From an uncultured bacterium (GTDB lineage Bacteria; Electryoneota; RPQS01; CBDVBD01): 64,000 nt of DNA. Where the stretch lies: assembly GCA_965372135.1 (NCBI GenBank), contig CBDVBD010000001.1, positions 3,964 through 67,963 on the forward strand, in the 5' to 3' direction. The position numbers and the translations under genes are program-made. Of this stretch, positions 16,985 through 41,034 are shown piece by piece. The notes under the pieces are model-generated. The model made no database searches, was not told where the DNA came from, and saw only the letters and a list, made by a program, of their open reading frames with translations. How positions within the stretch are numbered: the first letter of the stretch is position 1; each line of letters starts with the position of its first letter.

Positions 16985-17038
16985 TTATAGCAAAGCGTAA
17001 GTGTAGAAATGTTTTTTTGGGTTAAAGAAGAGGTTGTC

Positions 17039-18379
17039 ATGAAAAATCGTAATAGACTGGTATTGCTAATTGCATTAATGGTCGCAGCTGTGCTTAGTGG
17101 TTGCGATTCACCTATGGGACCTGACGAACCAAAACAACCCAAGAGTACCGGGCATTCTCCTCCGTTACCTGGAAATCTGCTAATTAATGTTGAATCGGAT
17201 GAGAGTGAATTCGATAGCGTCCTGTGCTTTGTACCCTCATATTCATTAGAGTTAATTAAAATGCTGCATGAAGGAGACTGCTATACTGTCAATATACAAC
17301 TGGATTCTGGAAGTTATAACATAATTTCCGAGGGATACCGTGAAGGACATGCAACTTATTCAGGATTTGGTACAGGACAGGTATCATCAAATCAAACAAC
17401 AACCATCGATATTTCATTGTCCCAAAAGGCATATGAGGTTGTAGGTTCCACTGATTTATTTGGGAGAGCAGAGAAAGTTGTTGTTGTAGGTAACTACGCT
17501 TATGTGCAGGTTAACAGTGCGTATCCTACTTATGATCCTGGTCTTCAAATAATTGATATCTCCAATCCTGACAATCCTACTTCTGTTGGATTCTACCGGT
17601 CAACATATTCGTTTCGAGATATTGCAGTTGCTGGAGGCTATGCCTATGCAGTGTGTGGAGGCTTAAGAGTGATCGATGTCTCCAACCCTTCTGGACCCAT
17701 AGAAGTTGGATGTCTTGTATCCACCATAATTGCTTTTGCCGCAAGAAATATCGAAATTAACGGGAATTACGCTTATGTTTCGGGATACATCAATTTTTAT
17801 GGATGTGGCATGTATCTTTGGGTGATCGATATTTCAAATCCCACTAATCCTGTGCAAGTTGGATTTAACTACACGATGGGAACGCTCTGTAGTGTCATTG
17901 AGGTCTCAGATCAATTCGCTTATTTAGCATGTGGGCAAAATGGTTTAATGGTTATGGATGTATCCGATCCAACAAATCCCAATGAAGTAGCTCAATGTGG
18001 ATTTTCCTATGCTGCATGGAAGATATCCGTCTCCGACGACTACATCTATGTCGCTGGAGATTCCCCTAATATAACGATTGCGGATATATCTACACCTTCA
18101 GATCCCGTAGAAGTTGGTTGTTGTTATTATATCTGGTATCCAAATGAAATTGCGGTATCCCAGGATTTCGGTTATGCTGTTACCGATTACAGTTTGATTG
18201 AAGTTAAGGCTACAGATCCTTCCAATCCAATTATTACAGGCTTATGCAGGCTCCCACAAGATACAAAGAGTATTGCCATTTCTGGTGATTACGCTTACGT
18301 AGCCTGTGATTCGAATGGATTGCAGACTGTTTACATTGGTGAGAAGCGACGGAAAAACGAAAATGTGGAGGAAGAGTAA
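17039..18379 (+). CDS. LVIVD-repeat beta-propeller lipoprotein
   Basis: Lipobox LSGCDSP. Six repeats of the (L/V)x(V/I)(I/M)D(I/V)S(N/D/T)P..P..VG pattern, e.g. LQIIDISNPDNP and LRVIDVSNPSGP. Real start likely ATG 17039 (RBS AAGAGG). The ORF track started at 17009. Confidence 0.75.
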   Translation: MKNRNRLVLLIALMVAAVLSGCDSPMGPDEPKQPKSTGHSPPLPGNLLINVESDESEFDSVLCFVPSYSLELIKMLHEGDCYTVNIQLDSGSYNIISEGYREGHATYSGFGTGQVSSNQTTTIDISLSQKAYEVVGSTDLFGRAEKVVVVGNYAYVQVNSAYPTYDPGLQIIDISNPDNPTSVGFYRSTYSFRDIAVAGGYAYAVCGGLRVIDVSNPSGPIEVGCLVSTIIAFAARNIEINGNYAYVSGYINFYGCGMYLWVIDISNPTNPVQVGFNYTMGTLCSVIEVSDQFAYLACGQNGLMVMDVSDPTNPNEVAQCGFSYAAWKISVSDDYIYVAGDSPNITIADISTPSDPVEVGCCYYIWYPNEIAVSQDFGYAVTDYSLIEVKATDPSNPIITGLCRLPQDTKSIAISGDYAYVACDSNGLQTVYIGEKRRKNENVEEE

Positions 18380-25216: not shown

Positions 25217-26560
25217 TCAGAAACGTATCGTAAATACTGTGTTTACACCAAGTACTGAACTGACGTTCATGGTGGCGCCGTGCAATCGCATGATTTGTTT
25301 TGACAAGCTTAACCCGATACCGGAACCCTCGGTTTTAGTGGTGAAGAATGGGATAAAGATTTTGTCCAGGACTTCCGCTTTTATGCCGTGTCCGTTATCT
25401 TCCACCTGGATCACCGGACACCCCCGTCCGTCGGTCCTGGCAATCATTTTGATGGTCGGATTGGGAGCGTTTTCCAGGGCTTCTACGGAATTTTTACAGA
25501 GGTTGATCAATACCTGTTCGATCATGTTGGGATCAGCGGTCAGTTCCAATGTTTCCGGGTCCACCGATACCTGGAGATCTATGGATTTTTGCCGGATTTG
25601 ATCCCCCATCAGGTTTCTTATTCGATTGAATAATTCTTCAATCAGGAATACTTCGTATTTCGGTTTGGGAATCCGGGTTAGTTTTCGGTAATCCTCCACG
25701 AAATGCAAAAGTCCATTACTGCGTTTTTCGATGGTTTTTACTGCGTTAACGATGTCATTGACAGCTTCATCCTCAGGATTGAATTTATCGGTATCAGCTG
25801 ATAACATTAATTTTGTTGTGGAGGCTAAGGAAGAGATGGGTGCGATGGAATTCATGATTTCGTGCGTTAAGGTACGGATAAGTGTCTGCCAGGCTTCCAT
25901 TTCCTTTTCTTCCAACTCCCGCTGGATGTTGGTCAACGACACCAAGGTAAAGGATTGCTGATGAGAGACGAATCCAGTGGCGTAAATCGACAATTGCAGC
26001 GATCGCTCTTCGTCCTGCAAGTTGATTTGTTCTTTCTCGCCGGGTTGGATATTTATAAGGGTGTCTGCCAGTTCCCGGCTGATGGGGGATAGCAGTTTGA
26101 TATTACGAAGGTTAGGGATTTTTAGCAGGCGTTTGGCGGCATTGTTGATCAACGTAACTTCCCCGTTCACGTCGTATGATATCAGACCCACGCCGACATG
26201 TTGGATAATGGTTTGAATGAAGCGATGATGCTCTTCCTTTTCCATCCGGATTCGCTTGAAGTTGTTCAAGACTTCGCCGAATGCATTGTGCAGGTCTTTG
26301 AATGTGGAACCTTTGGAAGTGCTGGCAAAGGGTTGCGAAAAGTCGGAATATTTTATTGATAACAGGAATCGTGTGACGTCGCGGTTGGTTTTTTCCACGT
26401 AGTGGAATAGTGCAAACACCTGATAAATAATGAGTACACCGACAATGAATACCGTGGCATACAGTTGTGTTTGGAATAGAAGATAGAGAAACAGGAATAT
26501 GGTGGCACCCAACAAAATCAGCCGCAAGGTGCAGTTTAGGCGGAACCGTTTAAAGATCAT
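25217..26560 (-). CDS. Sensor histidine kinase (2 TM, HisKA + HATPase_c)
   Basis: Two N-terminal TM helices. H-box LTHEIMNSIAPI. G-boxes EDNGHGI and GSGIGLSLSKQI. Overlaps the RR gene by 11 nt. Confidence 0.85.
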   Translation of the reverse strand: MIFKRFRLNCTLRLILLGATIFLFLYLLFQTQLYATVFIVGVLIIYQVFALFHYVEKTNRDVTRFLLSIKYSDFSQPFASTSKGSTFKDLHNAFGEVLNNFKRIRMEKEEHHRFIQTIIQHVGVGLISYDVNGEVTLINNAAKRLLKIPNLRNIKLLSPISRELADTLINIQPGEKEQINLQDEERSLQLSIYATGFVSHQQSFTLVSLTNIQRELEEKEMEAWQTLIRTLTHEIMNSIAPISSLASTTKLMLSADTDKFNPEDEAVNDIVNAVKTIEKRSNGLLHFVEDYRKLTRIPKPKYEVFLIEELFNRIRNLMGDQIRQKSIDLQVSVDPETLELTADPNMIEQVLINLCKNSVEALENAPNPTIKMIARTDGRGCPVIQVEDNGHGIKAEVLDKIFIPFFTTKTEGSGIGLSLSKQIMRLHGATMNVSSVLGVNTVFTIRF

Positions 26561-27926
26561 GCTTCTCCATCCTTCGGTACAATGAGGCTCGAGTGATGCC
26601 TAATTCCTTTGCGGCATAAGTCACGTTCCCTTCGTACTTGGTCAAGGCTTTTCTGATGATGGTTTTCTCCACGAAATCCAAGTCGAAATTATCGAATATC
26701 AAACCTTCCAGGTTTGCCACGGCAGACGGAAACAGAAAATCCGACGGTTGCAGCGTTTCGGTCTCCGCCAGGATAACGGCTCGTTCGATGGCATGCCGGA
26801 GTTCACGGATATTTCCGGGCCAATGATAACGCTGAAGCTTTTTCATGGTGGCGGAATTGATACTGTCTATGGGCTTTTTATATTTCTTGGAAAAAATCGA
26901 TACGAAGTGATCCACTAACAGCGGGATATCGTCCACACGTTTACGGAGTGGAGGTATTTGGATTTCCACGGTGTTGATGCGATAGAGCAGGTCCTGGCGA
27001 AATTCATTGCCCTGCACCATGTCATGGATATGCAAGTTGGTGGCGCATATCAAGCGAATATCGATGTCGATGGGTGCATTCGATCCCAGCCGGATTACCT
27101 GGCGGTTTTCCAATACCCGCAGCAGCTTCGCCTGCAGGGCTATCGGTACGTTTGCGATTTCGTCCAAGAAGATGGTGCCGCCGGAAGCTACTTCGAATCG
27201 ACCCGGTCGGTTTTCCTTGGCATCGGTGAAGGCACCTTTCATGTAACCAAAGAGTTCACTTTCGAACAACGTATCGGAAATCGCACCCACATCCACACTG
27301 ATAAAAACTTCATCCGCGCGTTCCGAGCCGCGGTGCAGAGCGCGTGCCACCAATTCTTTTCCCGTGCCGTTTTCCCCCAAAATCAACACATCGGCATCGG
27401 TATCCGCCACCTTTCGAATTGCGTTGAACACCTCTTGTATTGCGGAACTGACTCCGATCATTTCGTGGAAACGCTGATCGATATCGGCACTTAATTGCTT
27501 TTGGCGCGATCGGAATTTATCCACCTCACGCTGCGACTGACGCAGGTTCATTGCGGAGGATAGTGTAGCTAACAGCTTTTCGTTCTGCCAGGGTTTCAGC
27601 ACAAAGTCGGTGGCACCTTGTTTGATGGCTTTAACCGCCATTTCCACATCACCGAAAGCGGTAATCATAATCACCACCGCCGAGGGGTCGATTTCCTGAA
27701 TCTTTTCCAACCAGTGAAACCCTTCCAATCCGCTGGTTACATCCTCGGTAAAATTCATGTCCAGCAGGATAACATCGTAGGTCTCATTCTGTAGCAACGA
27801 TGGGATATGGTCGGGATTTTTTTCCGTGTGTACCACTGAGATATGCTGCTTGAGGAACATCTGTGCAGCAAGGAGGATATCCTCATTATCATCGACGATC
27901 AGGATTCTCCCGGAAACCTTAGCCAT
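26550..27926 (-). CDS. Sigma-54-dependent response regulator (NtrC family)
   Basis: REC (RILIVDDNEDI...LLDMNF), AAA+ sigma-54 domain (GENGTGKE, ESELFGYMKGAFT) and HTH. The ORF track starts at 27950 (MIDKKVDLMAK...). The Met at 27926 is preferred because it has AAAAAGG upstream and is the typical REC start. Confidence 0.9.
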   Translation of the reverse strand: MAKVSGRILIVDDNEDILLAAQMFLKQHISVVHTEKNPDHIPSLLQNETYDVILLDMNFTEDVTSGLEGFHWLEKIQEIDPSAVVIMITAFGDVEMAVKAIKQGATDFVLKPWQNEKLLATLSSAMNLRQSQREVDKFRSRQKQLSADIDQRFHEMIGVSSAIQEVFNAIRKVADTDADVLILGENGTGKELVARALHRGSERADEVFISVDVGAISDTLFESELFGYMKGAFTDAKENRPGRFEVASGGTIFLDEIANVPIALQAKLLRVLENRQVIRLGSNAPIDIDIRLICATNLHIHDMVQGNEFRQDLLYRINTVEIQIPPLRKRVDDIPLLVDHFVSIFSKKYKKPIDSINSATMKKLQRYHWPGNIRELRHAIERAVILAETETLQPSDFLFPSAVANLEGLIFDNFDLDFVEKTIIRKALTKYEGNVTYAAKELGITRASLYRRMEKHDL

Positions 27927-27962
27927 GAGATCAACCTTTTTATCAATCATCTGTTGTCTCGT

Positions 27963-27991
27963 AATATATGGATTTACAGCGATATTGTCAA
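27963..27991 (-). promoter_or_regulatory. Sigma-70-like promoter for the RR-HK(-GH38) unit (minus strand TTGACA-17-TATATT)
   Basis: Minus-strand reading: TTGACA (27986-27991), 17-nt spacer, TATATT (27963-27968). Confidence 0.35.
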
Positions 27992-27997
27992 GTATTG

Positions 27998-28015
27998 GTG
28001 AATGAAAATATTCAC
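27998..28015. promoter_or_regulatory. Perfect palindrome GTGAAT-N6-ATTCAC (candidate operator/activator site)
   Basis: GTGAATgaaaatATTCAC, immediately adjacent to the minus-strand -35 element. Confidence 0.3.
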
Positions 28016-28134
28016 TTGTGATTTCGGATTACTTCTGTATGGCAAATATCATTCCACATGCGCAAATTTATATACTGAGAAACCAGCGGCTAAGGCTCAG
28101 CAGCGGTTAAGCATGATAAGTAGTTAGCCTTTAG

Positions 28135-28150
28135 TGTCCGATATCGGACA
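28135..28150. promoter_or_regulatory. Perfect 16-bp palindrome TGTCCGATATCGGACA (candidate enhancer/UAS for the NtrC-type activator)
   Basis: Lies about 210 bp upstream of the sigma-54 -24/-12 element, with AT-rich (IHF-like) DNA in between. Confidence 0.35.
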
Positions 28151-28360
28151 TTAGTTGACCGGAACCGAACACTGGACGCCGATTGTCAGGTAATATCAGG
28201 ATTAGTCTGGAGTGGGTGAACTGGGGGAATGGTCAAAGGAATCGCATGTGGATATGAAATTGTATTATGATAATTATAATATAGATACAACATGAATAGG
28301 ATTTCCGATTTTGTCATTGTTGGAATTTAAGTACGTATGATATATTATATATACCCGCAT

Positions 28361-28375
28361 TGGCACCAATCTTGC
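28361..28375 (+). promoter_or_regulatory. Sigma-54 (RpoN) promoter TGGCAC-N5-TTGC
   Basis: Exact GG-N10-GC consensus (TTGGCACCAATCTTGCC). Predicted TSS near 28387. The first gene's ATG is at 28423. Confidence 0.6.
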
Positions 28376-28422
28376 CTAATATAATGAACATAGAATTGCT
28401 ATTTTCTGAGGAATGGAAGATC

Positions 28423-29676
28423 ATGGACCGTCAAATCAAGAAAAAGAAGTGGACACCAAAACGGATTGCTACGATGTCCTTAGCTGCCGTTTTTTTGGTA
28501 TTTGCATTGAAAGTCATTTTATTCGATACCAGGGACACCAAGCTGAATGTCAATGCCGAAAGGCTGTCTATTTCCACCGTTACAAAAGGACCATTTCAGG
28601 AATTTATCGCGGTGACCGGAACCTTGATTCCCATCAAGACCATCTATTTGGACGCCATCGAGGGGGGTAGGGTGGATTCGATATACCTGGAAGCTGGGAC
28701 CTATGTCAATAGAGGCGACAGTATTTTGAAATTGGTGAATACCAACCTGATGATGGATATTATGTACCGGGAAGCGGAGCTGTTCCAACAGAGCAATAAT
28801 CTGAGAAACACACGGCTTTTGATGGAGCAAAACCGTCTGAGAATCCAAGGTGAGATTCTGGAATTGGATTACCAGATTACCCAGCAGCGGCGTGTAGTGG
28901 AAAATAATGAGGAATTGAAAAAGAGGAATTTGATTGCCGATCAGGACTATGAGGAAGCATTGGATCAGTACCAGTATTTGATGAATACACGGGATCTGAC
29001 ATTGGTATCCCACCGGCAGGATTCGGTATTTCGGGAGGTGCAGGTTGAACAATTGGAGGCAGGGCTGGACCGGATGGAAGAAAACCTCGAATTTGTGAGA
29101 CAAAATGTGGAAAACTTGATTCTGAAGGCTCCCTTTTCCGGCCATCTGACGTCGTTGAATGCGGAGATCGGGGAATCAAAAGTCCGGGGAGAACGGTTGG
29201 GGCAGATCGATGTGTTGGACGGTTTCAAAGTGCGCGTGGCGGTGGATGAGCACTATATCACCCGGGTGAATATCGGGCTCAGAGGGGAATTTACCTTGGC
29301 GGATTCGATCTATCAATTGATAATCAAGAAAGTGTATCCGGAGGTGATTAACGGCAGGTTTGAAGTGAACATGGAATTTGTGGATCAGGAACCGGAGGAA
29401 GTCCGGCGCGGGCAATCGCTGCATATCCGGTTGGAATTAGGAGATTTGTCGGAAGCACTGCTTCTGGATCGCGGCGGATTTTACCAGAGCACCGGCGGGC
29501 AGTGGGTATATGTGTTGGACGAATCAGAACAGTTTGCGATAAAGCGCAAGATCAGGATCGGGCGGCAGAATCCGGAAGTGTTTGAGGTGTTGGAAGGGTT
29601 GGAACCGGGTGAGAAGGTGATAACCTCGTCTTATAGTAACTACGGAGATGTGGATAGATTAATGCTAAAACAGTAG
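28423..29676 (+). CDS. HlyD-family periplasmic adaptor (membrane fusion protein) of the ABC efflux system
   Basis: N-terminal TM anchor. Barrel-sandwich/biotinyl-like motif and long coiled-coil hairpin. Beta-barrel C-terminal region. Start ATG 28423 with GAGGAATGGAAG upstream. Confidence 0.8.
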   Translation: MDRQIKKKKWTPKRIATMSLAAVFLVFALKVILFDTRDTKLNVNAERLSISTVTKGPFQEFIAVTGTLIPIKTIYLDAIEGGRVDSIYLEAGTYVNRGDSILKLVNTNLMMDIMYREAELFQQSNNLRNTRLLMEQNRLRIQGEILELDYQITQQRRVVENNEELKKRNLIADQDYEEALDQYQYLMNTRDLTLVSHRQDSVFREVQVEQLEAGLDRMEENLEFVRQNVENLILKAPFSGHLTSLNAEIGESKVRGERLGQIDVLDGFKVRVAVDEHYITRVNIGLRGEFTLADSIYQLIIKKVYPEVINGRFEVNMEFVDQEPEEVRRGQSLHIRLELGDLSEALLLDRGGFYQSTGGQWVYVLDESEQFAIKRKIRIGRQNPEVFEVLEGLEPGEKVITSSYSNYGDVDRLMLKQ

Positions 29677-29695
29677 TAACAGAAAATCTTTTACA

Positions 29696-29734
29696 TGCTT
29701 TCGTGGTGCAGGGTGTCAACGAATCTTGATTCCT
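29696..29734 (+). other. Perfect 10-bp-stem hairpin (GTGCAGGGTG / CACCCTGCAC, 19-nt loop) in the adaptor-ATPase intergenic region
   Basis: Begins 20 nt after the adaptor stop. Followed by an A-run rather than a T-run, so it is not a canonical terminator. Confidence 0.4.
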
Positions 29735-29798
29735 CACCCTGCACAAAAACCGAATTCGAAACATAAAAAAATGTACAACATACAACATGGAGTCGAGA

Positions 29799-30488
29799 AT
29801 GATTAGGACCAAGAACCTCAAGAAAGGTTACACTACGGAAGAGGTGGAAACCACAGCGCTGGACAAGGTGAATGTGGAGATCAAAGAGGGTGAATTTGTT
29901 GCCATCATGGGTCCGTCGGGGTGTGGAAAATCCACCCTGCTGAACGTGATGGGGATGCTGGATAATCCTACGGAAGGGGAATATTATTTCCTGGGTAATG
30001 AGGTGTCCAAGTCCACGGAACGGCAGCGGGCGCAACTTAGGAAACGGAACATCGGGTTTGTGTTTCAGAGCTTTAACCTGATCGACGAATTGACCGTATT
30101 CGAAAATATCGAACTGCCGCTCTTGTATTTGGGGGTCTCATCCTCCGATCGCAAAACGCGGGTAGGTGAAGTGATGGAGCAGATGCAGATCACACCTCGG
30201 AAAAACCATTTTCCCCAGCAGCTATCCGGTGGTCAGCAGCAGCGTGTGGCGGTTGCGCGAGCGGTGATTGCCAAACCCAAGCTGATTCTGGCGGATGAGC
30301 CCACCGGGAACCTGGATTCCAGCCACGGCGATGAGGTAATGAAAAATCTAACCGCGTTGAACGAAACCGGCACCACCATCATCATGGTGACGCACTCACC
30401 AACCTATGCCGACTACGCACACCGCACCATTCATCTGTTTGACGGTCATGTGGTTACCGAAAATATCAGCGGGACGGTCAGTGTTTAA
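29799..30488 (+). CDS. ABC transporter ATP-binding protein (MacB/LolD-type stand-alone ATPase), copy 1
   Basis: Walker A GPSGCGKST, signature LSGGQQQRVAVARA, Walker B ILADEPTGNLD. ATG 29799 is preferred (GGAG 6 nt upstream). The ORF track starts at 29787. Confidence 0.85.
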   Translation: MIRTKNLKKGYTTEEVETTALDKVNVEIKEGEFVAIMGPSGCGKSTLLNVMGMLDNPTEGEYYFLGNEVSKSTERQRAQLRKRNIGFVFQSFNLIDELTVFENIELPLLYLGVSSSDRKTRVGEVMEQMQITPRKNHFPQQLSGGQQQRVAVARAVIAKPKLILADEPTGNLDSSHGDEVMKNLTALNETGTTIIMVTHSPTYADYAHRTIHLFDGHVVTENISGTVSV

Positions 30489-30567: not shown

Positions 30568-33018
30568 ATGTTTGAAAATTACCTGAAAGTGGCATTTCGC
30601 AATCTAATTCGGAACAAACTGTATTCTGTCATCAGCGTAATAGGTTTGTCGGTGGGAATTGCCTGTTGTACCTTGATTTTCCTGTATGTGCAGCAGGAAT
30701 TATCCTTCGACCGATTCCATGTGAATGCGGATAATCTCTATCGCATGGTTCGATACGAAGTAGGAACCGATGAGCTTGCCAATGGAACTGCCTCCATGTC
30801 GGCACTTCTTAATGCAGAATTGAAGGAAACCTTTCCGGAAGTTGTGGGCGCAACACGGGTTTCCGGCTCACAACAATTGGTGCAGCATGGTGACCAGTCG
30901 TTTTCCGAAGCAGTGGTGTTTGTGGATCCCGATTTCTTTCAGATGTTCTCCTTTCCTCTGATTCAGGGTGACATTGGCAGTGTGCTCGATGATCTGAATT
31001 CTACTGTGCTTACCCCTGAGATGGCACGGAAGTATTTCGGCGATGAAGATCCCATCGGCGCTACTATTACTATGCAGTTAGGGGAAACTACCCTCGATTT
31101 TTCCGTATCGGGAATTATCGAGGAAGCTCCGGACAATTCCAGTATTCAGTACAGTTTTTTGGTCTCTAACGACCATTTGAAATATATTTTCCCCGAAAGG
31201 TTATTGGAAACTTGGGGTATTATTCTTTTTCCCACCTATGTGCAATTAAAACCTGAAACAGATATTCAGGCTTTCGAGCAAAAGGTGACCGGTCATATCG
31301 ATCGGTTGTCTAAAGAGGAGGGAATCGAAAGTACTCTATTATTTATGGCAGAGCCGCTGACCGAAATCCATCTGAATCCCAACCTGGATGGAGCGATGAT
31401 ACCCAGCAGCGATCCGCTGTATTCATATATTTTAGCTGCTATCGCCTTTGCCATGTTATTGATTGCCTGCATCAATTTCATGACGTTGGCAGTGGGACGA
31501 TCCAGCAGCAGGGCGCGGGAAGTGGGTTTAAGGAAGGTATTGGGCGCTCAGCGAGAACAAATCATGAAGCAGTTTTGGGGAGAAGCACTGTTTCTAAGCG
31601 TTACAGCATTAATTATTGGTGTTGCACTGGCTGAAGTTTTCTTGCCCACATTTAATGAATTGGCTCAGAAGGAGCTGTCGCTGAATTTATTTTCTGATTG
31701 GACTATGCTGCCGGCGCTGATTGTAATAACATTGATAACTTCATTCTTGGCTGGGATTTATCCGGCAATGCTTTTGTCCAAGCTCTACCCCGTGGATACC
31801 TTCCGCGGGGCGATCAAATTGGGAGGCAAAAGCGGTCTAATCAATGGATTGGTTGTGCTGCAATTTGCCATTTCGGTGTTTCTGATAGTGTGCACGTTTA
31901 TCATATCATCGCAGATGAAGTATATCAATACCGAGGATCTTGGATATAATAAGGAAATGGCTGTAACATTTCCCACTGGTGTCACTGGCGAAGAGGCGGC
32001 GAACCTTCTAACTCGGTTCCGCAATGAAGTTACCGGTCAGGCATCGGTGGTAGATGTGACTGGGTATTCCTACGGATTGGGGCAGTCGTGGCTTTACATC
32101 AACTACGGTGATGAGGAAGGATTTACGGTTTTGATAGGCGAAGACATCACCGGTCCGGGGTATGCCGATGCCTCGGAACATGCAAAAGATTATTTCTATA
32201 TCAATTGGGTTGATCCCTATTACATCCCAACCATGGGGATTAATGTAGTTGAAGGACGCAATTTCCTACCCGACCATCCCGCGGACGTGAATGGCGCAAT
32301 TATCCTCAATCAAACCGCGGTGGAAAATTTTGGCTGGGAGGATGCCATCGGCAAGCAGCTTCCCAAGGGATTTAGTGATGCCATGGTGGTAGGAGTGATG
32401 GAAGATTTCCATTACTATCCCATGCACAGAGACATCGAACCGCTGGTTCTACATATGCCCCGACACGATCACCTGAGCAGCATCAACGGAATCGCAGTGC
32501 GGATTCTATCTGAGGACCTTCAGGGAACATTGGCATATCTTGAGGATGCATGGACGAATGTCAGTAACGGGAATCCGTTTAGTTATTCCTTTTTGGATGA
32601 GGATATCGCCAACCAATATTTCAACGAGCTACGGTGGCGTAACATCGTCAAGTATTCGTCGGTTTTCTCGTTTCTGGTGGCGTGTTTGGGATTGTTTGGA
32701 TTGACGTCGTTGGCGGTGGCAAAGCGCACCAGGGAAGTGGGAATTCGAAAGGTGTTGGGCGCCTCGGTATCACGGATTGTCGGGATGTTTACCTGGGATT
32801 TCGCGATTTTAGTGATTATTGCGAACGTTATCGCCTGGCCGGTAGGGTATTTTGTGATGAAACGGTGGCTGGAAGAGTTTGCTTTCCGCACCAATATCAG
32901 CATGGTGACCTTTATTCTGACCGGCGCGATTGCCCTTGCGATTGCGTTATTGACGGTGAGTTTTCAGGCGGTGAAAGTCGCTTTAGCGAATCCGGTGGAT
33001 GCTTTAAGATATGAATAA
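30568..33018 (+). CDS. MacB/FtsX-type ABC permease, double FtsX domain (paralog 1 of 10)
   Basis: 816 aa. N-terminus MFENYLKVAFRNLIRNK with TM1. Two periplasmic-core/FtsX modules with motifs ...IACINFMTLAVGRSSSRAREVGLRKVLGA... C-terminus ANPVDALRYE. Confidence 0.8.
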   Translation: MFENYLKVAFRNLIRNKLYSVISVIGLSVGIACCTLIFLYVQQELSFDRFHVNADNLYRMVRYEVGTDELANGTASMSALLNAELKETFPEVVGATRVSGSQQLVQHGDQSFSEAVVFVDPDFFQMFSFPLIQGDIGSVLDDLNSTVLTPEMARKYFGDEDPIGATITMQLGETTLDFSVSGIIEEAPDNSSIQYSFLVSNDHLKYIFPERLLETWGIILFPTYVQLKPETDIQAFEQKVTGHIDRLSKEEGIESTLLFMAEPLTEIHLNPNLDGAMIPSSDPLYSYILAAIAFAMLLIACINFMTLAVGRSSSRAREVGLRKVLGAQREQIMKQFWGEALFLSVTALIIGVALAEVFLPTFNELAQKELSLNLFSDWTMLPALIVITLITSFLAGIYPAMLLSKLYPVDTFRGAIKLGGKSGLINGLVVLQFAISVFLIVCTFIISSQMKYINTEDLGYNKEMAVTFPTGVTGEEAANLLTRFRNEVTGQASVVDVTGYSYGLGQSWLYINYGDEEGFTVLIGEDITGPGYADASEHAKDYFYINWVDPYYIPTMGINVVEGRNFLPDHPADVNGAIILNQTAVENFGWEDAIGKQLPKGFSDAMVVGVMEDFHYYPMHRDIEPLVLHMPRHDHLSSINGIAVRILSEDLQGTLAYLEDAWTNVSNGNPFSYSFLDEDIANQYFNELRWRNIVKYSSVFSFLVACLGLFGLTSLAVAKRTREVGIRKVLGASVSRIVGMFTWDFAILVIIANVIAWPVGYFVMKRWLEEFAFRTNISMVTFILTGAIALAIALLTVSFQAVKVALANPVDALRYE

Positions 33019-33036: not shown

Positions 33037-35433
33037 ATGATTAAGAATTATCTGAAGATTGCCTTGCGAAACCTGATCAAACACAAAGCGTATTCCGTCA
33101 TCAATGTGGCGGGATTGGCGATCGGGATCACGTGTTGTTTTCTGATAATTTCTTATGTGGTCAATGAATTGCAGTTCGAACGATTTCATGAGAATAGGGA
33201 TCGGATTTACCGGGTGACCACGGAAGTGAACTTCGGTGGGCGGACAGACTTTTTGGCGATGGGGACGGTTCCATTGCTGCCGATTATGGATGATGAAATC
33301 CCGGAAGTGGAACATTCAGTTAGGTTTAGTCCGGAACGGAATGTGTTGATCAGTTATGAGAATAACCGCTTTCAGGAACCAAATTTCTACTTTGCCGATT
33401 CCACGTTGTTTGAGGTGTTTACCTTCCCCTTGAAGCAGGGCGATCCAAACTCCGTATTGAGTAAACCTTTTACGATGGTAATTACCGAGGAAATGGCGCA
33501 AAAATATTTTAGTGATGATGACCCGATTGGGAAGGTGTTAAAGTACGAAAACGAGCATGATTTTGAGGTGACCGGTATCCTGCAGAATATACCTCCCCAT
33601 ACACAGCTTCGTGGTGATTTCTTTGCCTCGTTTTCAAGCAAGATCGCATTCGAAACCCCGGATTTCCAAAGCTGGGGACGTCTGGGTGAAACGTACAATT
33701 ATATCTTATTGATAAAAGGAGCTAATCCGTCGGTAGTGGAGGAAAAGATTCCCGGGTTACTGGAGAAGCATGTTGATCCGGGGATGGCGTCGATTTTCAC
33801 GTTTCATTTACAGCCCTTGAAGCGTGTTTATCTTCATTCGGATTTGATGGGAGAACTTCGACCAAAGGGTAATATAGGGTATGTGTATCTGTTCTCCGCG
33901 ATCGCGATTTTGATTCTGTTGATTGCCTGTATCAATTTTATGAATTTGTCCACTGCGCGGTCGATGCACCGAGCCCGGGAAGTCAGCCTCCGGAAGACAT
34001 TTGGTGCAAACCGACAACAAATAATTAACCAGTTCTTAGGTGAATCGATTGCGATTACATCTGTTTCGCTTCTGCTTTCGGTTGCATTGTTCGAGCTTCT
34101 CCTGCCGGTATTTAACCGATTTGTGGAAAAAGAGCTTTCCACGGATTATTTACACCAGATTTGGATGATACCGGGGCTGGTGGTAATTACCATGGTGGTG
34201 GGATTGATTGCCGGAAGTTATCCTGCGTTTTTCCTGTCGAGATTTCAACCGGTGAAAATACTGAAAAGCAGCACATCCACCTCATCAACAAAATCCCTTC
34301 TTCGAAGGACATTGGTGGTGTTTCAATTTGCGATTTCCATTACGTTGATTGTGGCGACTTCGGTGGTGTTCAGTCAACTGCATTTTGTGAAGAACACGGA
34401 TTTGGGGTTTGAAATGGACCATGTGGTGATTCTGCAAATGGACACTCCGATTGTGCAGCAGCAGTATGAGCCCATGAAACGGGAATTACTGCAGGATCCG
34501 AACATTATAGATGTCGCAGGGGCATTTTCACTGCCCGCCAACGGTCGGTTGATGAAGACAGGTGTAACTGCTGAAGGATTGTATCCGGAAAAGATTCCAC
34601 CGATGCAGGCAGTTAGTGTGGATTACGATTATGTGGATGTGTTGGGTCTTGAGATGGTGCAGGGGCGGAATTTTTCTAAAGAGTTCAGCACCGATGAAAG
34701 ACAAGCGGTTATCTTGAACCAGACGGCAGTGAATACGTTAGGTTGGCAGGATCCGATTGGAAAACAATTTTCGGTGCCTGGTGAATGTACGATTGAACAT
34801 GGGGATGCGTATGTGATTGGAGTGGTGAAGGATTTTCATCTTCGATCGATGCGTGAAACCATCGAACCCATGTTTATGTTTATCAAACCATCCCTGTACC
34901 AATTATTGGCGGTTCGAGTAAAGCCACAGGATATTTCCGGGGCGTTGGCATCGATAGAGCGGATTTGGGGGACCTATGCAGGATCGACTCCTTTCAATTA
35001 TTCCTTTATCGAAGAGGATTTCGATGAGATGTACCGTTCCGAAGCCAAACTCAGCCAGATTTTTACCGCCTTTTCACTGTTGGCAGTGTTTATCGGGTGT
35101 TTGGGGTTGTTCGGATTGACGGCATTTGCCGCGGAACAGCGCACCAAGGAGATCGGAATCCGGAAGGTGCTGGGAGCATCCGTTACGAATATCGTTGGCT
35201 TGTTGTCCAAGGAATTCGTGATATTGGTGATAGCTGCGAATGTGATTGCTTGGCCCATTGCGTATTACAGCATGAATAAGTGGCTCGAAAATTTCGTCTA
35301 TCATATTGAAATGTCAGTATTTACTTTCGTGATGGCAGCATTAATTGCTTTGGTGATTGCGGTTGGCACTATGAGTTTTCAGGCAATTCGGGCAGCACTC
35401 TCGAATCCGGTGGATGCGTTACGCTATGAGTAA
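33037..35433 (+). CDS. MacB/FtsX-type ABC permease (paralog 2)
   Basis: 798 aa. N-terminus MIKNYLKIALRNLIKHK. FtsX motifs LIACINFMNLSTARSMHRAREVSLRK and EQRTKEIGIRKVLGA. Ends NPVDALRYE. RBS AGGAG. Confidence 0.8.
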   Translation: MIKNYLKIALRNLIKHKAYSVINVAGLAIGITCCFLIISYVVNELQFERFHENRDRIYRVTTEVNFGGRTDFLAMGTVPLLPIMDDEIPEVEHSVRFSPERNVLISYENNRFQEPNFYFADSTLFEVFTFPLKQGDPNSVLSKPFTMVITEEMAQKYFSDDDPIGKVLKYENEHDFEVTGILQNIPPHTQLRGDFFASFSSKIAFETPDFQSWGRLGETYNYILLIKGANPSVVEEKIPGLLEKHVDPGMASIFTFHLQPLKRVYLHSDLMGELRPKGNIGYVYLFSAIAILILLIACINFMNLSTARSMHRAREVSLRKTFGANRQQIINQFLGESIAITSVSLLLSVALFELLLPVFNRFVEKELSTDYLHQIWMIPGLVVITMVVGLIAGSYPAFFLSRFQPVKILKSSTSTSSTKSLLRRTLVVFQFAISITLIVATSVVFSQLHFVKNTDLGFEMDHVVILQMDTPIVQQQYEPMKRELLQDPNIIDVAGAFSLPANGRLMKTGVTAEGLYPEKIPPMQAVSVDYDYVDVLGLEMVQGRNFSKEFSTDERQAVILNQTAVNTLGWQDPIGKQFSVPGECTIEHGDAYVIGVVKDFHLRSMRETIEPMFMFIKPSLYQLLAVRVKPQDISGALASIERIWGTYAGSTPFNYSFIEEDFDEMYRSEAKLSQIFTAFSLLAVFIGCLGLFGLTAFAAEQRTKEIGIRKVLGASVTNIVGLLSKEFVILVIAANVIAWPIAYYSMNKWLENFVYHIEMSVFTFVMAALIALVIAVGTMSFQAIRAALSNPVDALRYE

Positions 35434-35539
35434 ACATCGATCAGATACATCTAAGATAAACAAGGACATCGTCAGCACAAGTCCTGCTTCCGAGGTTGAA
35501 GAGCCGCTGGCGACTGTGGATCGTACCATTCCTAATGTG

Positions 35540-36320
35540 ACGTCCAATGATTACTCTCTTCAACCGGTTGTAATATATCTCCATTCCCACTTCTCCTTCG
35601 AAGGATCGGGTGGCAGTTTCGCATTCATTAACATCCTCTCAATGATTGCAGTTCTCATTTTGTTGATAGCCTGCTTCAACTTCATGAATCTTAAAACTGC
35701 CAGATCTGCCACCCGGTCCATAGAAGTGGGGCTTTATGAAAGTAATGGAGGTTTCTAAGGGCGCCTGAAGGGTCAACATCATCATTTTGTGAGGTTTTGT
35801 TATGTTTGGCACATTTTGGGAAATCGTTCGGCGGGATGTCGCGGATATCAGTGCGAATCTCGTGAGTAATCTTGCCGGCTTCATTGTCAGTATGGTGTGT
35901 TGTGTGTTGGTGTTTCTCTGTATTCAGAATAACCTGAATACGACTAACACCCATAGTGAATTGAATCCGAAACAACCCATGAACATAGAATACGACCGTG
36001 GAATGAAAGGCGTTTCTATTCACGGTACTTCGTCAATGGTGATACCGTCCATTGACGAAGGGTTTTGCTTGTGTGACATGTTTTCCTTTCCGTTGGTGAT
36101 GAATGTGCGGAATAATTCAATTTTTCAAGAACAGAGGGGCTTAATCACCCATCCGATGATTCAGCGACAACTGGACGGACAAAACCAACCGACACAACCT
36201 GAACACACAGACCAAATAAACTGTCCAACTAAACCATGGCGGGATGTTTCAAGGATCGATTATGGTCGAATGAACCATCATGTAAGATATAAACTACTGT
36301 CTAAGTTTCAAAGTAGTTAA
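35540..36320 (+). pseudogene. Decayed MacB/FtsX permease remnants: an internal TM2-region fragment followed by an N-terminal TM1-region fragment
   Basis: Fragment 1 (...SFAFINILSMIAVLILLIACFNFMNLKTARSATRSIEVGL..) matches the conserved FtsX block. Fragment 2 (...AGFIVSMVCCVLVFLCIQNNL... ...CDMFSFPLVMN..) resembles the permease N-terminus and FxFPLxxG block. Both carry stops and frame breaks. Confidence 0.5.
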
Positions 36321-36378
36321 TTGTCTGTCGAATATAAAGATCGACTGTGTTGTTTCTCTCAACAAAAAGGAGTTGCTC

Positions 36379-37047
36379 GTGATACGCTTAAAAGATGTAA
36401 CCAAATTCTACTCTGCTGGAACCATGAATACCTATGTCTTGCGTCACATAGATTTGGAAATCGAGGAAGGTGAATTTGTGACTATAATGGGACCATCCGG
36501 TGCCGGTAAAACTACTCTAATGAACATCATTGGTATGCTGGATTCCATGTCGGAAGGGGAATATTATTTCCTTGATCAGGAAGTGCACCGCCTCAACGAG
36601 AAAAAACGGGCTGCACTGTACAAGGAAAACATGGGATTCGTGTTTCAGAGCTACCATCTAATCGATGAACTCACGGTGTACGAAAACCTGGAAACCCCGC
36701 TTCTGTACAAGAAAATCAAGGGTGGTGAGCGCAAAAGCATGGTGTGTGATATTTTGGACCGGTTTCAGGTTGTGGGAAAGAAAAACCTATTTCCGAATCA
36801 GTTATCCGGCGGACAGCAGCAGCAAATCGGCGTAGCTCGGGCGATCATTACCAATCCAAATCTACTGTTAGCGGATGAGCCCACCGGGAACCTCCATTCT
36901 TCACAGGGGGAGGAAATCATGGATATGTTCACCCAGTTGAACAAGGACGGCACCACCATCATTCAGGTCACACACTCGGAAAAGAATGCCGCCTACGGCA
37001 ACCGGATTATTTACCTGAAAGACGGTTGGATTGTGGACAGTCTCTAA
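36379..37047 (+). CDS. ABC transporter ATP-binding protein (MacB/LolD-type), copy 2
   Basis: Walker A GPSGAGKTT, signature LSGGQQQQIGVARA, Walker B LLADEPTGNL. GTG start 36379 lies 6 nt after AAGGAG (the ORF track gave TTG 36373). Confidence 0.8.
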   Translation: MIRLKDVTKFYSAGTMNTYVLRHIDLEIEEGEFVTIMGPSGAGKTTLMNIIGMLDSMSEGEYYFLDQEVHRLNEKKRAALYKENMGFVFQSYHLIDELTVYENLETPLLYKKIKGGERKSMVCDILDRFQVVGKKNLFPNQLSGGQQQQIGVARAIITNPNLLLADEPTGNLHSSQGEEIMDMFTQLNKDGTTIIQVTHSEKNAAYGNRIIYLKDGWIVDSL

Positions 37048-37202
37048 TGAACTCATAATTATCCAACTATGGGAAGCCGCCCGGCTGCTGAAAACAGCAC
37101 CGATCAGTGACGCATTGATCTTGAACCAAATCGCCGAACAACAACTGGAACTACCACGTTCGTATTAATAATGTTAACAAAGACTTAACCTTGAGGGACA
37201 AT

Positions 37203-38441
37203 ATGAAGAGGATTACCGCAGCAAATATTTTAATTCTGTGCTTGGTTGCAATTAGCACCAGCGTATGGGCAGTGATCGACAACCAAGGCGTTATCGCAAA
37301 ATACAACACGGTTGCCCTTGGAAGCCAATATAAAACATCCGATTCCGAAGCCGATGCGGTTGCACTCGAACGCATCATAACTGTTGGCAGAACTGACAAC
37401 CGGATTATGGAGTATTTGGATTATTTGTGCAACGAAATCGGTGGGCGTCCCGCTGGGTCTGACAATGTACATACCGCAAGTGAATGGGCACGTGACAAGT
37501 TTATCAGCTTTGGCTTATCCAATGTACATATTGAGGAAAGCTCGCATACAGGTGGGGGTGGTTGTGGATCGTGTTCTGGGGATTCAAATATTGTTCGGAA
37601 GATCTTCTGGGCGATAAAGTCTCGGTTTACAAAGAACAAAACGATTCCAATTTATAATGTTGTAGCGGACATTCCAGGCACACAGTACCCGGATGAGTAT
37701 GTGATAGTCGGTGCGCACATCGATTCCGATGATGCCGGAACCGGAGCATCCGACAACGGCACCGGAGTTGCCGCCACATTGGAAGCGGCGCGGCTGTTGA
37801 TGGAATCAGGCGCTAAACCACGTCGCACCATAAGATTCATCCTATTTGATGGGGAGGAGATTGGAAAAATTGGGTCCCAAGCTTACGTATCTAATCATCC
37901 GGAACTAACGTCGAAAATCACTGCAATGCTGAATATGGATCAGGGTAGTGATCATATCTCGGGAATCCATGCCACCGAAGCTATGATGGGTGATTTCCGG
38001 AATGTATTTGCACCGATCGAATCACTAAATCAGGAAATGCCTTTCAAGATTGAGAAAGTCGATCACTTGTCGGATATTATCAAGGAATGCTGTGGAAGTG
38101 CTGGCACCAGCGATCACGGATCGTTTTTTGAAGCCGGTGTGCCGGCGTTTTCTTGGCTGCAGCAGGGAAAGAATCCGGTTCGATACCAGCCGCATACGAA
38201 ACATGATACTTACGACAAAGTAAATCCCGACCATCAGGAACATTCGACAATGGTAGTTGCGATTGGCGCTTTGGGAATTGCTAATCTAGACCATATGTTG
38301 TACCGGTCACACTCAACATCGTTGGTCGATCAGGATTCACCAAACCAACCCAAAATCATCAATTGGTGCTACAAATTGTTAATGAGTTATAAGCATATAG
38401 TGAAGCAAGTTCGGCAGGACAGCACACCTGCTATTGAGTGA
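37203..38441 (+). CDS. M28-family zinc peptidase (aminopeptidase-like), secreted
   Basis: Signal peptide. Metal-ligand blocks VIVGAHIDSDDAGTGASDNGTGVAATLEAARLL and ILFDGEEIG. ATG 37203 is preferred over TTG 37191. Confidence 0.75.
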   Translation: MKRITAANILILCLVAISTSVWAVIDNQGVIAKYNTVALGSQYKTSDSEADAVALERIITVGRTDNRIMEYLDYLCNEIGGRPAGSDNVHTASEWARDKFISFGLSNVHIEESSHTGGGGCGSCSGDSNIVRKIFWAIKSRFTKNKTIPIYNVVADIPGTQYPDEYVIVGAHIDSDDAGTGASDNGTGVAATLEAARLLMESGAKPRRTIRFILFDGEEIGKIGSQAYVSNHPELTSKITAMLNMDQGSDHISGIHATEAMMGDFRNVFAPIESLNQEMPFKIEKVDHLSDIIKECCGSAGTSDHGSFFEAGVPAFSWLQQGKNPVRYQPHTKHDTYDKVNPDHQEHSTMVVAIGALGIANLDHMLYRSHSTSLVDQDSPNQPKIINWCYKLLMSYKHIVKQVRQDSTPAIE

Positions 38442-38500
38442 TAAAGGATAGCTATGGTTAAACTGACATCAAATCGTAACCTGATAGATGAATAGTATTC

Positions 38501-38534
38501 GCTGTCATATTAGCCTCATTATGACAGCATTTTG
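38501..38534 (+). terminator. Candidate terminator/attenuator after the M28 gene
   Basis: 9-bp stem GCTGTCATA/TATGACAGC with a 10-nt loop, then ATTTTG. Confidence 0.3.
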
Positions 38535-38640
38535 ATAAATAGTGAAAGAACATACACAGCACACTTAATGATAACAAAATAATGAGCTTCCGACATGTCA
38601 TCATTAGACTATATTTCAATCTAATTGCTGGGAGGGTATC

Positions 38641-41034
38641 CTGTTTCATAACTACTTAAAAGTGGCTATTCGTAATCTCCTGCGACACAAAGGATACTCC
38701 CTTATCAACATCATAGGTTTGGCGGTGGGGATGGCATGCTGTATTCTGATAATGCTGTGGGTGATGGATGAGTTGAATTATGACCGATACCATGAAAATG
38801 CAAATAATATCTACCGGGTTATCGGAGAACGGCATTACAGTGATCGAAAGGCTGAATTTGCCACCATACCTCCACAGGCATGTGATCTGTTGTTGAATGA
38901 GTTCCCAGAAGTGGTGAAAGCCACCCGGTATTTTGAAACCCGAGGCAGTCATGGAACCTGGCTGATACGACACGGTGATTTAGCTTATTTAGAAAAAACC
39001 AGTGGCGCGGCTGACCCGGCGTTCTTCGAGATATTCGATTTTCCATTCATTTCTGGAGATCCGGCAACCTGTTTAGATGATCCTTTTAACATAGTTATGA
39101 CTGAAACCACCGCAAAAAAGTATTTCAGTGAGGATGAAGCGGTGGGGCAAACTTTGCGGTTGGATGATACTTGGGATTTTATAATTACTGCTGTGATCGA
39201 AGATATACCGCGTAATTCTCATTTTCAATTCGATTTTCTGATGCCGAACACCATTTTCAATGAAATCGGTGGTGACCTGGAAAATTGGAATTTCTGGACA
39301 TTTCATACCTATGTGCTTTTGGATGAACAGGCAAATTATCGTGATGTCAGTGCGAAAATCGGTGATTTGATTGTCCGTCATAACGAGCAGTTACCCAGCA
39401 GGTTGTTTTTGCAGCCGTTAACGGATATCCACCTCAAATCGAAATTCGAAAGAGATGTGGTCGGTCTTAGTGACATTACTTATGTCTATTTATTGTCAGC
39501 TATTGCGGTATTCATTTTACTGATAGCTTGCATCAATTTCATGAACTTAACCACCGCCATTGCCGGCAAGCGAGCCAAGGAAGTCGGTTTACGAAAAGTA
39601 GTGGGCGCAGTTAGGGGCAATTTGATCCGGCAATTTTTAGGGGAGTCTATTCTCCTATCATTTATTGCTCTGGTTGTCGCATTAGCCATAGTGGAAGCCT
39701 TGCTTCCCGTGTTTAACGATCTATTAGCAAAAGAATTAACACTTCATTTATTAGATTCAGGAAAGGTTTTCTTATGGTTACTGGCGATAGCGATACTTAC
39801 AGGAATCGTGTCGGGTAGTTATCCGGCTTTCTTCCTGGCATCTTTTCAACCGGCTACTGTATTGAAAGGCTCCCAGAAAAGCAAGAGTGGTAAAACCTGG
39901 TTCCGAAGAATAACGGTTATTTTTCAGTTCACACTGTCAGTGGCTTTGATAATCTCCACCCTGGTGGTGTACAATCAACTGAAATATATTAGCAACAAAA
40001 AATTGGGATTTGATAAGGACCATCTTGTATATATCAATTGTGCCGGGCAGATGGGCGTTCCACCAAAATTTGATTCAGTGAAACAAGAGTTCCTGAAGAT
40101 TCCAGGTGCCAAGGGTGTAACAAGTATTCTCCAGTTACCGCCGGATATTTATTATGTAGCGAATAACTTTGGATGGCAAGGAAAAGATCCTGAAAACACA
40201 GAATATATACGTTTTGCTAGTACCAGTGATGATTTTACAGATGTATTTCAAATTCCAGTAACCCGGGGCAGATCGTTTTCCCGGGATTTTCTTGGTGATT
40301 CCGCATCGGTGTTGATTAACGAAACGGCTGCAAAAGTGATGGGATATGATAATCCCTTGGGAAAACAAATAACCGCACCCAATATTCAAACTCAGAAAAT
40401 AAATACGTTTACCATTGTCGGTGTTCTGGAGGATTTCCATTTCCGATCATTGCATGAACAAGTTGCACCCCTGGTGGTATTCCGGAACACAAATTTCTTC
40501 AATTACATAGTAGTTCGAATCATCACGGAAGATATAACCGGAACCATGGCGCAACTTCGGAAAACCACCAAGGAAGTTCTGCCAGAATTTCCTCTGGATT
40601 TCCGCTTTTTGGATGAGGACTATGACATATTGTACCGAACCGAATACAGGCTGGGCAGCCTGGCACAATATTCCACCCTGTTGGCGATTTTGATATCCTG
40701 TCTGGGTTTGTTCGGTTTGGCATCCTACACCGTTGAACAACGCACCAAAGAAATCGGGGTCCGCAAAGTATTGGGTGCATCAGTGTCCAATATCGTGCTG
40801 CACCTATCGAAGGAATTTGCATTTTGGGTAATTATCGCCAACATTATCGCTTGGCCGGTTGCCTATTACGCGATGAATCGGTGGCTGGAAAATTTCGCCT
40901 ACCGGATCAATGTAGAGTGGTGGACCTTTGTCACTGCAGGTGTGCTTGCCTTTGTGATTGCGTTCATCACTGTGAGTTTTCAGGCTATCAAAGCAGCGAC
41001 CACTAATCCCGTGGATGCTTTGAGATACGAGTAG
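38641..41034 (+). CDS. MacB/FtsX-type ABC permease (paralog 3); start codon uncertain
   Basis: The ORF track starts at GTG 38662 (MAIRNLLRHK). The conserved N-terminal block NYLKVAIRNL is encoded upstream in the same frame (LFHNYLKV), so the true start is probably a non-ATG codon (CTG 38641, 4 nt after GGAGGG), or the gene has lost its start. Ends NPVDALRYE. Confidence 0.65.
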   Translation: MFHNYLKVAIRNLLRHKGYSLINIIGLAVGMACCILIMLWVMDELNYDRYHENANNIYRVIGERHYSDRKAEFATIPPQACDLLLNEFPEVVKATRYFETRGSHGTWLIRHGDLAYLEKTSGAADPAFFEIFDFPFISGDPATCLDDPFNIVMTETTAKKYFSEDEAVGQTLRLDDTWDFIITAVIEDIPRNSHFQFDFLMPNTIFNEIGGDLENWNFWTFHTYVLLDEQANYRDVSAKIGDLIVRHNEQLPSRLFLQPLTDIHLKSKFERDVVGLSDITYVYLLSAIAVFILLIACINFMNLTTAIAGKRAKEVGLRKVVGAVRGNLIRQFLGESILLSFIALVVALAIVEALLPVFNDLLAKELTLHLLDSGKVFLWLLAIAILTGIVSGSYPAFFLASFQPATVLKGSQKSKSGKTWFRRITVIFQFTLSVALIISTLVVYNQLKYISNKKLGFDKDHLVYINCAGQMGVPPKFDSVKQEFLKIPGAKGVTSILQLPPDIYYVANNFGWQGKDPENTEYIRFASTSDDFTDVFQIPVTRGRSFSRDFLGDSASVLINETAAKVMGYDNPLGKQITAPNIQTQKINTFTIVGVLEDFHFRSLHEQVAPLVVFRNTNFFNYIVVRIITEDITGTMAQLRKTTKEVLPEFPLDFRFLDEDYDILYRTEYRLGSLAQYSTLLAILISCLGLFGLASYTVEQRTKEIGVRKVLGASVSNIVLHLSKEFAFWVIIANIIAWPVAYYAMNRWLENFAYRINVEWWTFVTAGVLAFVIAFITVSFQAIKAATTNPVDALRYE

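Follow-up and report, generated by a model that had tools for sequence, protein, structure and literature searches.

A putative enhancer-dependent control region between an NtrC-type two-component pair and an array of MacB-type permease genes

We analysed a 64,000-nt stretch of DNA from an uncultured bacterium (contig CBDVBD010000001.1; hereafter the window), in which the gene of an NtrC-type response regulator and the adaptor gene at the head of a long array of transporter genes diverge from a 497-bp intergenic region. We conclude, with a probability of about 0.8, that this region is an enhancer-dependent control region. In the mechanism that we propose, the histidine kinase encoded beside the regulator would phosphorylate it, and regulator dimers would bind two sites, TGTCCGATATCGGACA (site A) and TGACCGGAACCGAACA (site B), 21 bp apart on one face of the helix (Table 1). 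The regulator would then form an ATPase ring and reach sigma-54 RNA polymerase by DNA looping. Its main target would be polymerase bound at the -24/-12 element in front of the adaptor gene, giving a start near position 28387 for the adaptor, ABC ATPase and permease genes. These sites would probably activate the regulator/kinase operon as well, through a weaker, divergent sigma-54 promoter, with positive feedback as the result, possibly on top of a basal sigma-70-type promoter. What the sequences show directly is the elements, their rarity, and their conserved placement and spacing in about 90 orthologous loci of many phyla; we infer from them the binding, the start points of transcription, the in vivo dependence on sigma-54, the signal and the extent of control over the array. 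The looping of an enhancer-binding protein onto a -24/-12 promoter is a textbook mechanism and an ordinary kind of switch; the value of the case is that it defines the regulon signature of a widespread, uncharacterised exporter system.

This conclusion is carried mainly by comparison with related loci. Species-representative genomes and metagenome contigs were scanned with the regulator protein, which yielded 160 loci (L001-L160) whose regulators are 61-74% identical to that of the window; they come from Acidobacteriota, KSB1, Latescibacterota, Bacteroidota, Ignavibacteria, Zixibacteria and others. One of the loci, L059, is from the cultured Roseivirga spongicola. Exact-sequence look-ups with the regulator (either possible start) and the ABC ATPase gave no hit, and by its gene content the window resembles the FCB group. 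Their usual arrangement in the related loci is a regulator gene followed by a kinase gene, with a divergent adaptor/ABC/permease operon. We used two samples, a smaller one of 42 intergenic regions and a larger one of 93 loci that have a divergent transporter gene. When palindromes in the 42 regions were counted without bias, the list was headed by GTCCG-N4-CGGAC, TGTCC-N6-GGACA, TGTTC-N6-GAACA and GTTCG-N4-CGAAC. The motif TGTNCG-N4-CGNACA is found in 40 of these regions (1.3 in shuffled sequences) and in 90 of the 93 loci of the larger sample (0.66 in shuffles). Per kb, it occurs 2.05 times in these intergenic regions and 0.033 times elsewhere in the same loci, a 62-fold difference, and its inner CG dinucleotides are conserved as strongly as its outer TGT/ACA triplets. 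In loci whose transporter operon is detached from the regulator gene (L023, L024, L047, L049, L063, L068 and L155), the motif is found upstream of the transporter, and in L047 pairs of sites stand ahead of three separate operons. A short-word blastn comparison of the intergenic region with the window and the 160 loci showed clear DNA similarity at the activator site only, the remainder giving a few 14-18-nt matches at an E-value of about 2. The motif is a clear phylogenetic footprint, which we propose to be the binding motif of an uncharacterised regulator family.

In the window, site A is the 16-bp palindrome that the initial annotation had located about 210 bp upstream of the promoter and had put forward as the upstream activating sequence of the regulator. 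It is perfect and lies 210 nt upstream of the transporter promoter, as described. The 16-mer is unique in the window, other matches carrying three mismatches and lying within genes, and by chance the intergenic region would contain 0.07 perfect 8+8 palindromes. With a matrix built from 77 homologous sites, the two best matches in the whole window are site A (score 25.0) and site B (14.2); the latter, overlooked in the initial annotation, is two helical turns from site A. This spacing is the norm of the family, in which 29 of 31 tandem pairs are 20-22 bp apart. Nearer to the transporter promoter, the same matrix gave no third site above 3 bits. The role of upstream activating sequence is supported by the presence of the motif in nearly all of the 93 loci, by its density there and by its association with detached transporter operons; it is this co-occurrence with the regulator family that points to binding of the regulator at sites A and B. 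Random scatter of the palindrome, named at the outset as an observation that would speak against such a role, is answered by the strong positional bias of the motif in the related loci.

The TGGCAC-N5-TTGC string reported upstream of the adaptor ATG, the -24/-12 element of the transporter operon, has its core at 28361-28375, inside TTGGCACCAATCTTGCC at 28360-28376, so that the coordinates first given for it hold; GG is at 28362-28363 and GC at 28374-28375, with 10 nt between them. The element ends 47 nt before the adaptor ATG (28423), and its GG is 61 nt from the start codon, a distance typical of the family; a transcription start is predicted near 28386-28387. On its two strands the window contains a single exact match, where 0.13 would be expected, and with one mismatch there are six matches against 3.6 expected, the other five being within genes. 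A scan with a sigma-54 matrix, as had been suggested with the initial annotation, was made using 38 homologous transporter-side sites from which the window was left out, and it returned this element as the best match in the whole window (17.9 bits). On the transporter strand, GG[CT][AG][CT]-N6-TG is present 11-115 nt before the start codon in 39 of the 42 regions, and an equivalent -24/-12 element in 85 of the 93 loci, compared with 4.2 in shuffles and six on the opposite strand. The -12 element of the relatives is often TTGA or TTGG, not TTGC; the window has the full consensus. These data support the element as a conserved sigma-54 promoter of the adaptor/ABC/permease operon.

The divergent minus-strand pair, described beforehand as a sigma-54 response regulator with the GENGTGKE motif and its kinase, was recovered by a domain search. 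The regulator matches PF00072, PF00158 (Sigma54_activat), PF25601 (AAA lid) and PF02954 (HTH_8), all above the cut-offs, and its start at 27926 is backed by full-length alignments of homologues. It has the receiver aspartate in LLDMNF, the Walker A motif GENGTGKE and a GAFTDA loop, and ESELFGYMKGAFT is present. GENGTGKE is found in 141 of the 160 family members, and GAFTDA, rather than GAFTGA, in 144; GAFTDA is listed among the GAFTGA variants that retain activity (PMC4641369). The recognition helix is near-invariant across the family, which agrees with the conserved site. We also looked for covariation between this helix and the variable fourth base of the half-site, and the comparison was uninformative, the helix being near-invariant and the base varying within single sites. 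The regulator is below the curated NCBIfam cut-off of every named model (NtrC, AtoC, ZraR, PrsR, GlrR, NtrX, NifA and others), the best scores being those for PEP-CTERM PrsR (389.8, cut-off 502.6), AtoC (358.5, cut-off 714) and NtrC (350.1, cut-off 558.6). At its N-terminus the kinase carries a hairpin of two transmembrane helices with an outer loop of about five residues; after this come a cytoplasmic region that resembles that of AtoS and is presumably PAS-like, and then the HATPase domain. Its juxtamembrane segment EKTNRD..RFL is conserved, and among the homologues inspected (40 of 121 full-length alignments) conservation is high both within the membrane and beside it. Since the kinase has no periplasmic sensor domain, its signal would be sensed in the membrane, in the cytoplasm or through the transporter.

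Table 1 Features of the intergenic region and of the genes on either side of it (positions in the window)
Feature	Position	Strand	Basis or remark
Histidine kinase	25217-26560	-	Domain matches; 11-nt overlap with the regulator gene
NtrC-type response regulator (REC, AAA+ sigma-54 interaction domain, Fis-type helix-turn-helix)	26550-27926	-	Domain matches
Sigma-70-like promoter candidate, TTGACA-17-TATATT, 11/12 matches	27963-27991	-	Consensus scan only; the consensus may not be that of the host
GTGAAT-N6-ATTCAC palindrome	27998-28015		Real, at chance level, not conserved
Candidate weak sigma-54 promoter of the regulator/kinase operon, TGGAATgatatTTGC (TGGAAT-N5-TTGC)	28042-28056	-	Matrix and recurrence in the family
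Putative activator site A, perfect palindrome TGTCCGATATCGGACA	28135-28150		Fits the family motif TGTNCG-N4-CGNACA
Putative activator site B, TGACCGGAACCGAACA	28156-28171		One mismatch to the motif; second-best matrix match in the window
AT-rich tract, 40 nt, 17% G+C	28247-28286		About midway between the activator sites and the transporter promoter
Predicted sigma-54 (-24/-12) promoter of the transporter operon, TGGCACcaatcTTGC	28361-28375	+	Exact consensus, matrix, conservation
HlyD-type adaptor	28423-29676	+	Domain matches
ABC ATPase	29787-30488	+	Domain matches
Duplicated MacB_PCD/FtsX permeases, first two	30568-33018, 33037-35433	+	Domain matches
Rest of the array: nine more duplicated permeases and other genes	35802-61112	+	Putatively co-regulated
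Open reading frame without family match	35802-36320	+	In array
Second ABC ATPase	36373-37047	+	In array
M28 peptidase	37191-38441	+	In array
TonB-receptor-like protein with CarboxypepD_reg domain	45888-48161	+	In array
DUF4249 protein	48162-49076	+	In array

The geometry of the region also speaks for enhancer-dependent control. Upstream activating sequences of enhancer-binding proteins are inverted repeats about 80-250 nt upstream of the -24/-12 element, often in tandem and on the same helical face, and the sites of the window agree with this description. Across the family, the spacing between site centre and -24 GG takes discrete values in steps of about 11 bp (about 51, 61, 73, 84.5 and 96), with 84-85 as the dominant class, and this quantisation suggests that activation depends on the helix face. 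Sites B and A of the window are centred 198 and 219 nt from the transporter-side GG. The AT-rich tract within this long spacer may act as a flexible or bent segment. No match to a known RNA family was obtained in 27800-28600 at E-values up to 1. A mobile or repeated element between the sites and the promoter was considered and rejected, as blastn recovered essentially the activator site alone. We also observed a perfect 10-nt inverted repeat, TCCACATGCG / CGCATGTGGA, at 28053-28062 and 28243-28252, whose arms are symmetrical, about 95 nt either side of the pair of activator sites. There is overlap between the left arm and the regulator-side -24 element; the right arm gives rise to a plus-strand TGGATA-N5-TTGT, which is 87 nt from site B, scores below 4 bits and may be the remnant of an ancestral short-distance transporter promoter.

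We may wonder whether the same sites also serve the genes of the regulator and kinase. The candidate sigma-54 promoter on the minus strand has its GG 87 and 108 nt from the centres of sites A and B, which would place the sites at about -112 and -133, and the shorter distance is within the dominant 81-87 class. Applied to the regulator strand, the transporter-trained matrix exceeds the 95th null percentile in 17 of the 42 regions; in the larger sample, 55 of 91 loci do so against about 4.6 expected, and 29 are above the 99th. The unusual form GGAA[TC]-N5-TTG was found on the regulator strand of 16 out of 145 homologous regions (one on the opposite strand, 1.2 in shuffles), and the window has the 14-mer GGAATGATATTTGC in common with L121. 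We put the chance that the regulator/kinase operon is itself sigma-54-dependent, through the same binding sites, at a little over one half.

Several points weigh against our conclusion. The rpoN gene is not within the 64-kb window; a second enhancer-binding protein and two near-consensus -24/-12 sites in the window give indirect support for the use of sigma-54 by this organism. The site-to-promoter distance of 198 nt on the transporter side is an outlier against the family median of 85, and the assistance by integration host factor (IHF) that the initial annotation had evoked finds no echo in the sequence, the consensus WATCAR-N4-TTR having no match on either strand in 27927-28423. On the regulator side, the candidate promoter reaches 11.1 bits, about the 97th-98th null percentile, and its -24 element shows A and T in place of the usual C. 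The training sites of the sigma-54 matrix were picked by a regular expression, which makes its use on the transporter side circular; this circularity does not touch the regulator side or the window. The related loci share kinship, and their counts and the p-values for periodicity therefore overstate the number of independent events. Finally, about 40 related regulator/kinase loci have neither the site nor a transporter in the fetched DNA; the targets of these regulators presumably lie elsewhere in the genome, or the loci form a paralogous subgroup. Two other explanations were weighed. One is that some other protein uses the palindrome, or that it is there by chance or for structural reasons, and that the regulator acts elsewhere. 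Sites of the TGT-N10-ACA type are indeed common to several families of enhancer-binding proteins (PMC4641369). Against this stand the co-occurrence of the site with this regulator family and with MacB-type operons across many phyla, the fixed tandem spacing and the quantised distance to the -24/-12 element, and the lack of any other conserved DNA-binding protein nearby; we regard this explanation as very improbable. The other is that the -24/-12 match is coincidental and that the operon uses a promoter of the sigma-70 family. One exact match per 64 kb is indeed obtained in 13% of shuffles, and whole-window shuffles reach similar matrix scores. Yet both the intergenic region and the strand of the element are the right ones, its spacing to the start codon is that usual in the family, the great majority of the related loci conserve it and it adjoins the gene of a sigma-54 activator; we find coincidence hardly credible.

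Two further alternatives concern what is transcribed from where. The regulator/kinase operon could be expressed from the sigma-70-like promoter, with GTGAAT-N6-ATTCAC as its operator, the autoregulatory role first suggested for this palindrome. The promoter match is strong and lies about 30 nt upstream of the regulator ATG (27926), and the palindrome, which is present where it had been reported, abuts the -35 hexamer. Yet 1.9 inverted repeats with arms of at least 6 and spacers of 0-12 are expected in shuffles of the region, and among 145 homologous upstream regions only two match the palindrome with at most two mismatches, against four expected; on this chance-level frequency and lack of conservation the operator was rejected. 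In addition, no candidate binding protein is apparent, and the TTGACA/TATAAT consensus would be inapplicable if the organism belongs to Bacteroidota. We consider this combination of promoter and operator unlikely; the sigma-70-like promoter itself may be real even if the operator fails, as a source of basal regulator/kinase expression. The other alternative extends the proposed control: the single sigma-54 promoter at 28361 might transcribe everything from 28423 to 61112 (about 33 kb and about 20 genes), and the two-component pair would then control every permease paralogue. All of these genes are on the same strand, with gaps of mostly 0-60 nt. The intergenic gaps of the array contain no other sigma-54 site of at least 12 bits and no terminator-like hairpin on the plus strand, total hairpin counts being near the shuffle expectation, and the activator matrix found no further site in the array. 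On the other hand, the gaps of 111, about 370, 144 and 221 nt (29676-29787, 35433-35802, 37047-37191 and 38441-38662) could hold promoters for other sigma factors, a 33-kb transcript would be unusually long, and at least one relative, L047, has its separate pairs of sites before three separate operons. Sigma-70-like matches in the gaps are plentiful and uninformative. A single transcript is conceivable, at somewhat less than even odds. Enhancer-dependent control by the two-component pair is well supported for the first genes of the operon; for the whole 33-kb array it is a possibility.

The array contains eleven duplicated MacB_PCD/FtsX permeases of about 800 residues each, built of duplicated units with four transmembrane helices (4-TM) and a MacB_PCD domain, the last ending at 61112. 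A gap of about 500 nt separates this permease from a long plus-strand open reading frame (ORF), 61494-64000, which continues beyond the window; because of this gap, the array probably ends with the last permease. The array resembles the acidobacterial duplicated orphan permease (ADOP) clusters, which are likewise long tandem arrays of duplicated MacB_PCD/FtsX permeases of about 800 residues with ABC components. A permease of the window scores 289.3 bits with the ADOP model TIGR03434, below its cut-off of 622.3, although the two-unit MacB_PCD + FtsX architecture is present. A 42-kb ADOP cluster of unknown function has been described in Psychroflexus torquis, in a paper that makes no mention of the regulation of these clusters (PMC3914696).

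Among characterised regulators, NtrC has the same domain architecture as the regulator of the window. At glnAp2, tandem palindromes separated by whole helical turns lie about 100-140 nt upstream of the -24/-12 element, and the regulatory genes are under positive feedback. The regulator side of the window matches this geometry, whereas on the transporter side the sites are 198-219 nt from the GG. The NtrC site, TGCACC-N5-GGTGCA, differs from TGTNCG-N4-CGNACA, and the regulator of the window, at 350 bits, remains below the cut-off of the NtrC model and has GAFTDA in place of GAFTGA. Moreover, NtrB is soluble and acts with NtrC in nitrogen assimilation, whereas the kinase of the window is membrane-bound, without a sensor loop, and the presumed target is an ABC exporter array. 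The NifA upstream activating sequence TGT-N10-ACA has outer triplets and spacing identical to those of the window site, but in the family of the window the inner CG dinucleotides are as conserved as the triplets; NifA also has a GAF domain where the regulator of the window has a receiver domain and scores below the NifA cut-off. Several motifs of enhancer-binding proteins are built from TGT/ACA half-sites (PMC4641369).

The parallel between the kinase and transporter of the window and the Bce modules is more speculative. In the BceRS-BceAB systems of Firmicutes, which sense peptide antibiotics, a two-component system is encoded beside a MacB/FtsX-type transporter that it induces, and the kinase has two transmembrane helices with essentially no extracellular loop and requires the transporter for sensing. 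The kinase topology and the position of the two-component genes beside a MacB/FtsX-type transporter are Bce-like in the window. However, Bce regulators are of the OmpR type and act at a sigma-70 promoter, whereas the window has a sigma-54 activator, which sets it apart from Bce modules; its permeases are duplicated 4-TM + MacB_PCD units accompanied by an HlyD adaptor, and its kinase has the additional AtoS-resembling cytoplasmic region. By analogy, the kinase might monitor the activity or the substrate load of the MacB/ADOP-type exporter and feed a sigma-54 activator with positive feedback, which we consider rather doubtful. If it were so, the Bce modules of Firmicutes would have a sigma-54-based counterpart that is widespread and crosses phyla, and this reading would offer the first handle on what ADOP permease arrays export.

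A literature search on sigma-54 together with FtsX, HlyD, MacB, ADOP or intramembrane-sensing kinases found only one study besides general reviews, and nothing that describes the regulator family, the site it is proposed to bind or the pair of divergent promoters. According to the relevant passages of that study, sigma-54 promoters are enriched upstream of COG0577 and COG1136 genes in Bacteroidia, Opitutia and Gammaproteobacteria, a computational prediction whose link between sigma-54 and COG0577 FtsX-type permeases is called the first evidence of its kind (PLoS One 2025, PMC12316311). The target class is the same as here; these passages name no activator, binding motif, kinase or promoter geometry, whereas the present comparison defines a cognate regulator family, a 16-bp site, its tandem arrangement and a divergent candidate promoter.

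Large arrays of duplicated MacB/ADOP-type permeases, enigmatic as to substrate and inducing signal, are common in Acidobacteriota, Bacteroidota and related phyla, and high expression of such arrays is on record (PMC3914696). Our analysis supplies for them a cognate two-component system, a 16-bp site that is usually in tandem at 20-22 bp, and a conserved sigma-54 promoter. Together, these three elements form a portable signature by which the regulon could be located in any genome; they also provide a reporter for inducer screening and a concrete target for electrophoretic mobility shift assays (EMSA) or DNA affinity purification sequencing (DAP-seq).

Some variation within the family should also be mentioned. 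The roughly 40 loci without a site keep the same recognition helix (L001, L004, L009, L010, L017, L031, L035, L104, L111 and others). Among the closest relatives of the regulator (L081-L102, 70-74% identity), the divergent ABC/permease operon mostly lacks an adaptor gene, the exceptions being L085-L087, L096, L099 and L100. Most of them have a near-invariant site resembling TGTACGAATTCGTACA, and their asymmetry is opposite to that of the window, the regulator-side promoter candidate being about 167 nt from the site.

In the second sigma-54 system of the window, the response-regulator activator is encoded at 10686-12050 and its neighbour, a histidine kinase with a PDZ domain, at 12047-14506. 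The plus strand has two near-consensus -24/-12 sites, the second- and third-best sigma-54 matrix matches in the window: TGTGGCATGGCTATTGTATT (14650-14669), just upstream of an ORF at 14701-15198, and ATTGGCATGGCTTTTGAGTT (16967-16986), just upstream of an LVIVD-repeat ORF at 17009-18379. The upstream regions of both ORFs have the words CACTTCCCT, CTATACACTT and CCTATAATG in common, and ATACACTTC is found upstream of the second activator gene too; these words may be binding sites of the second activator.

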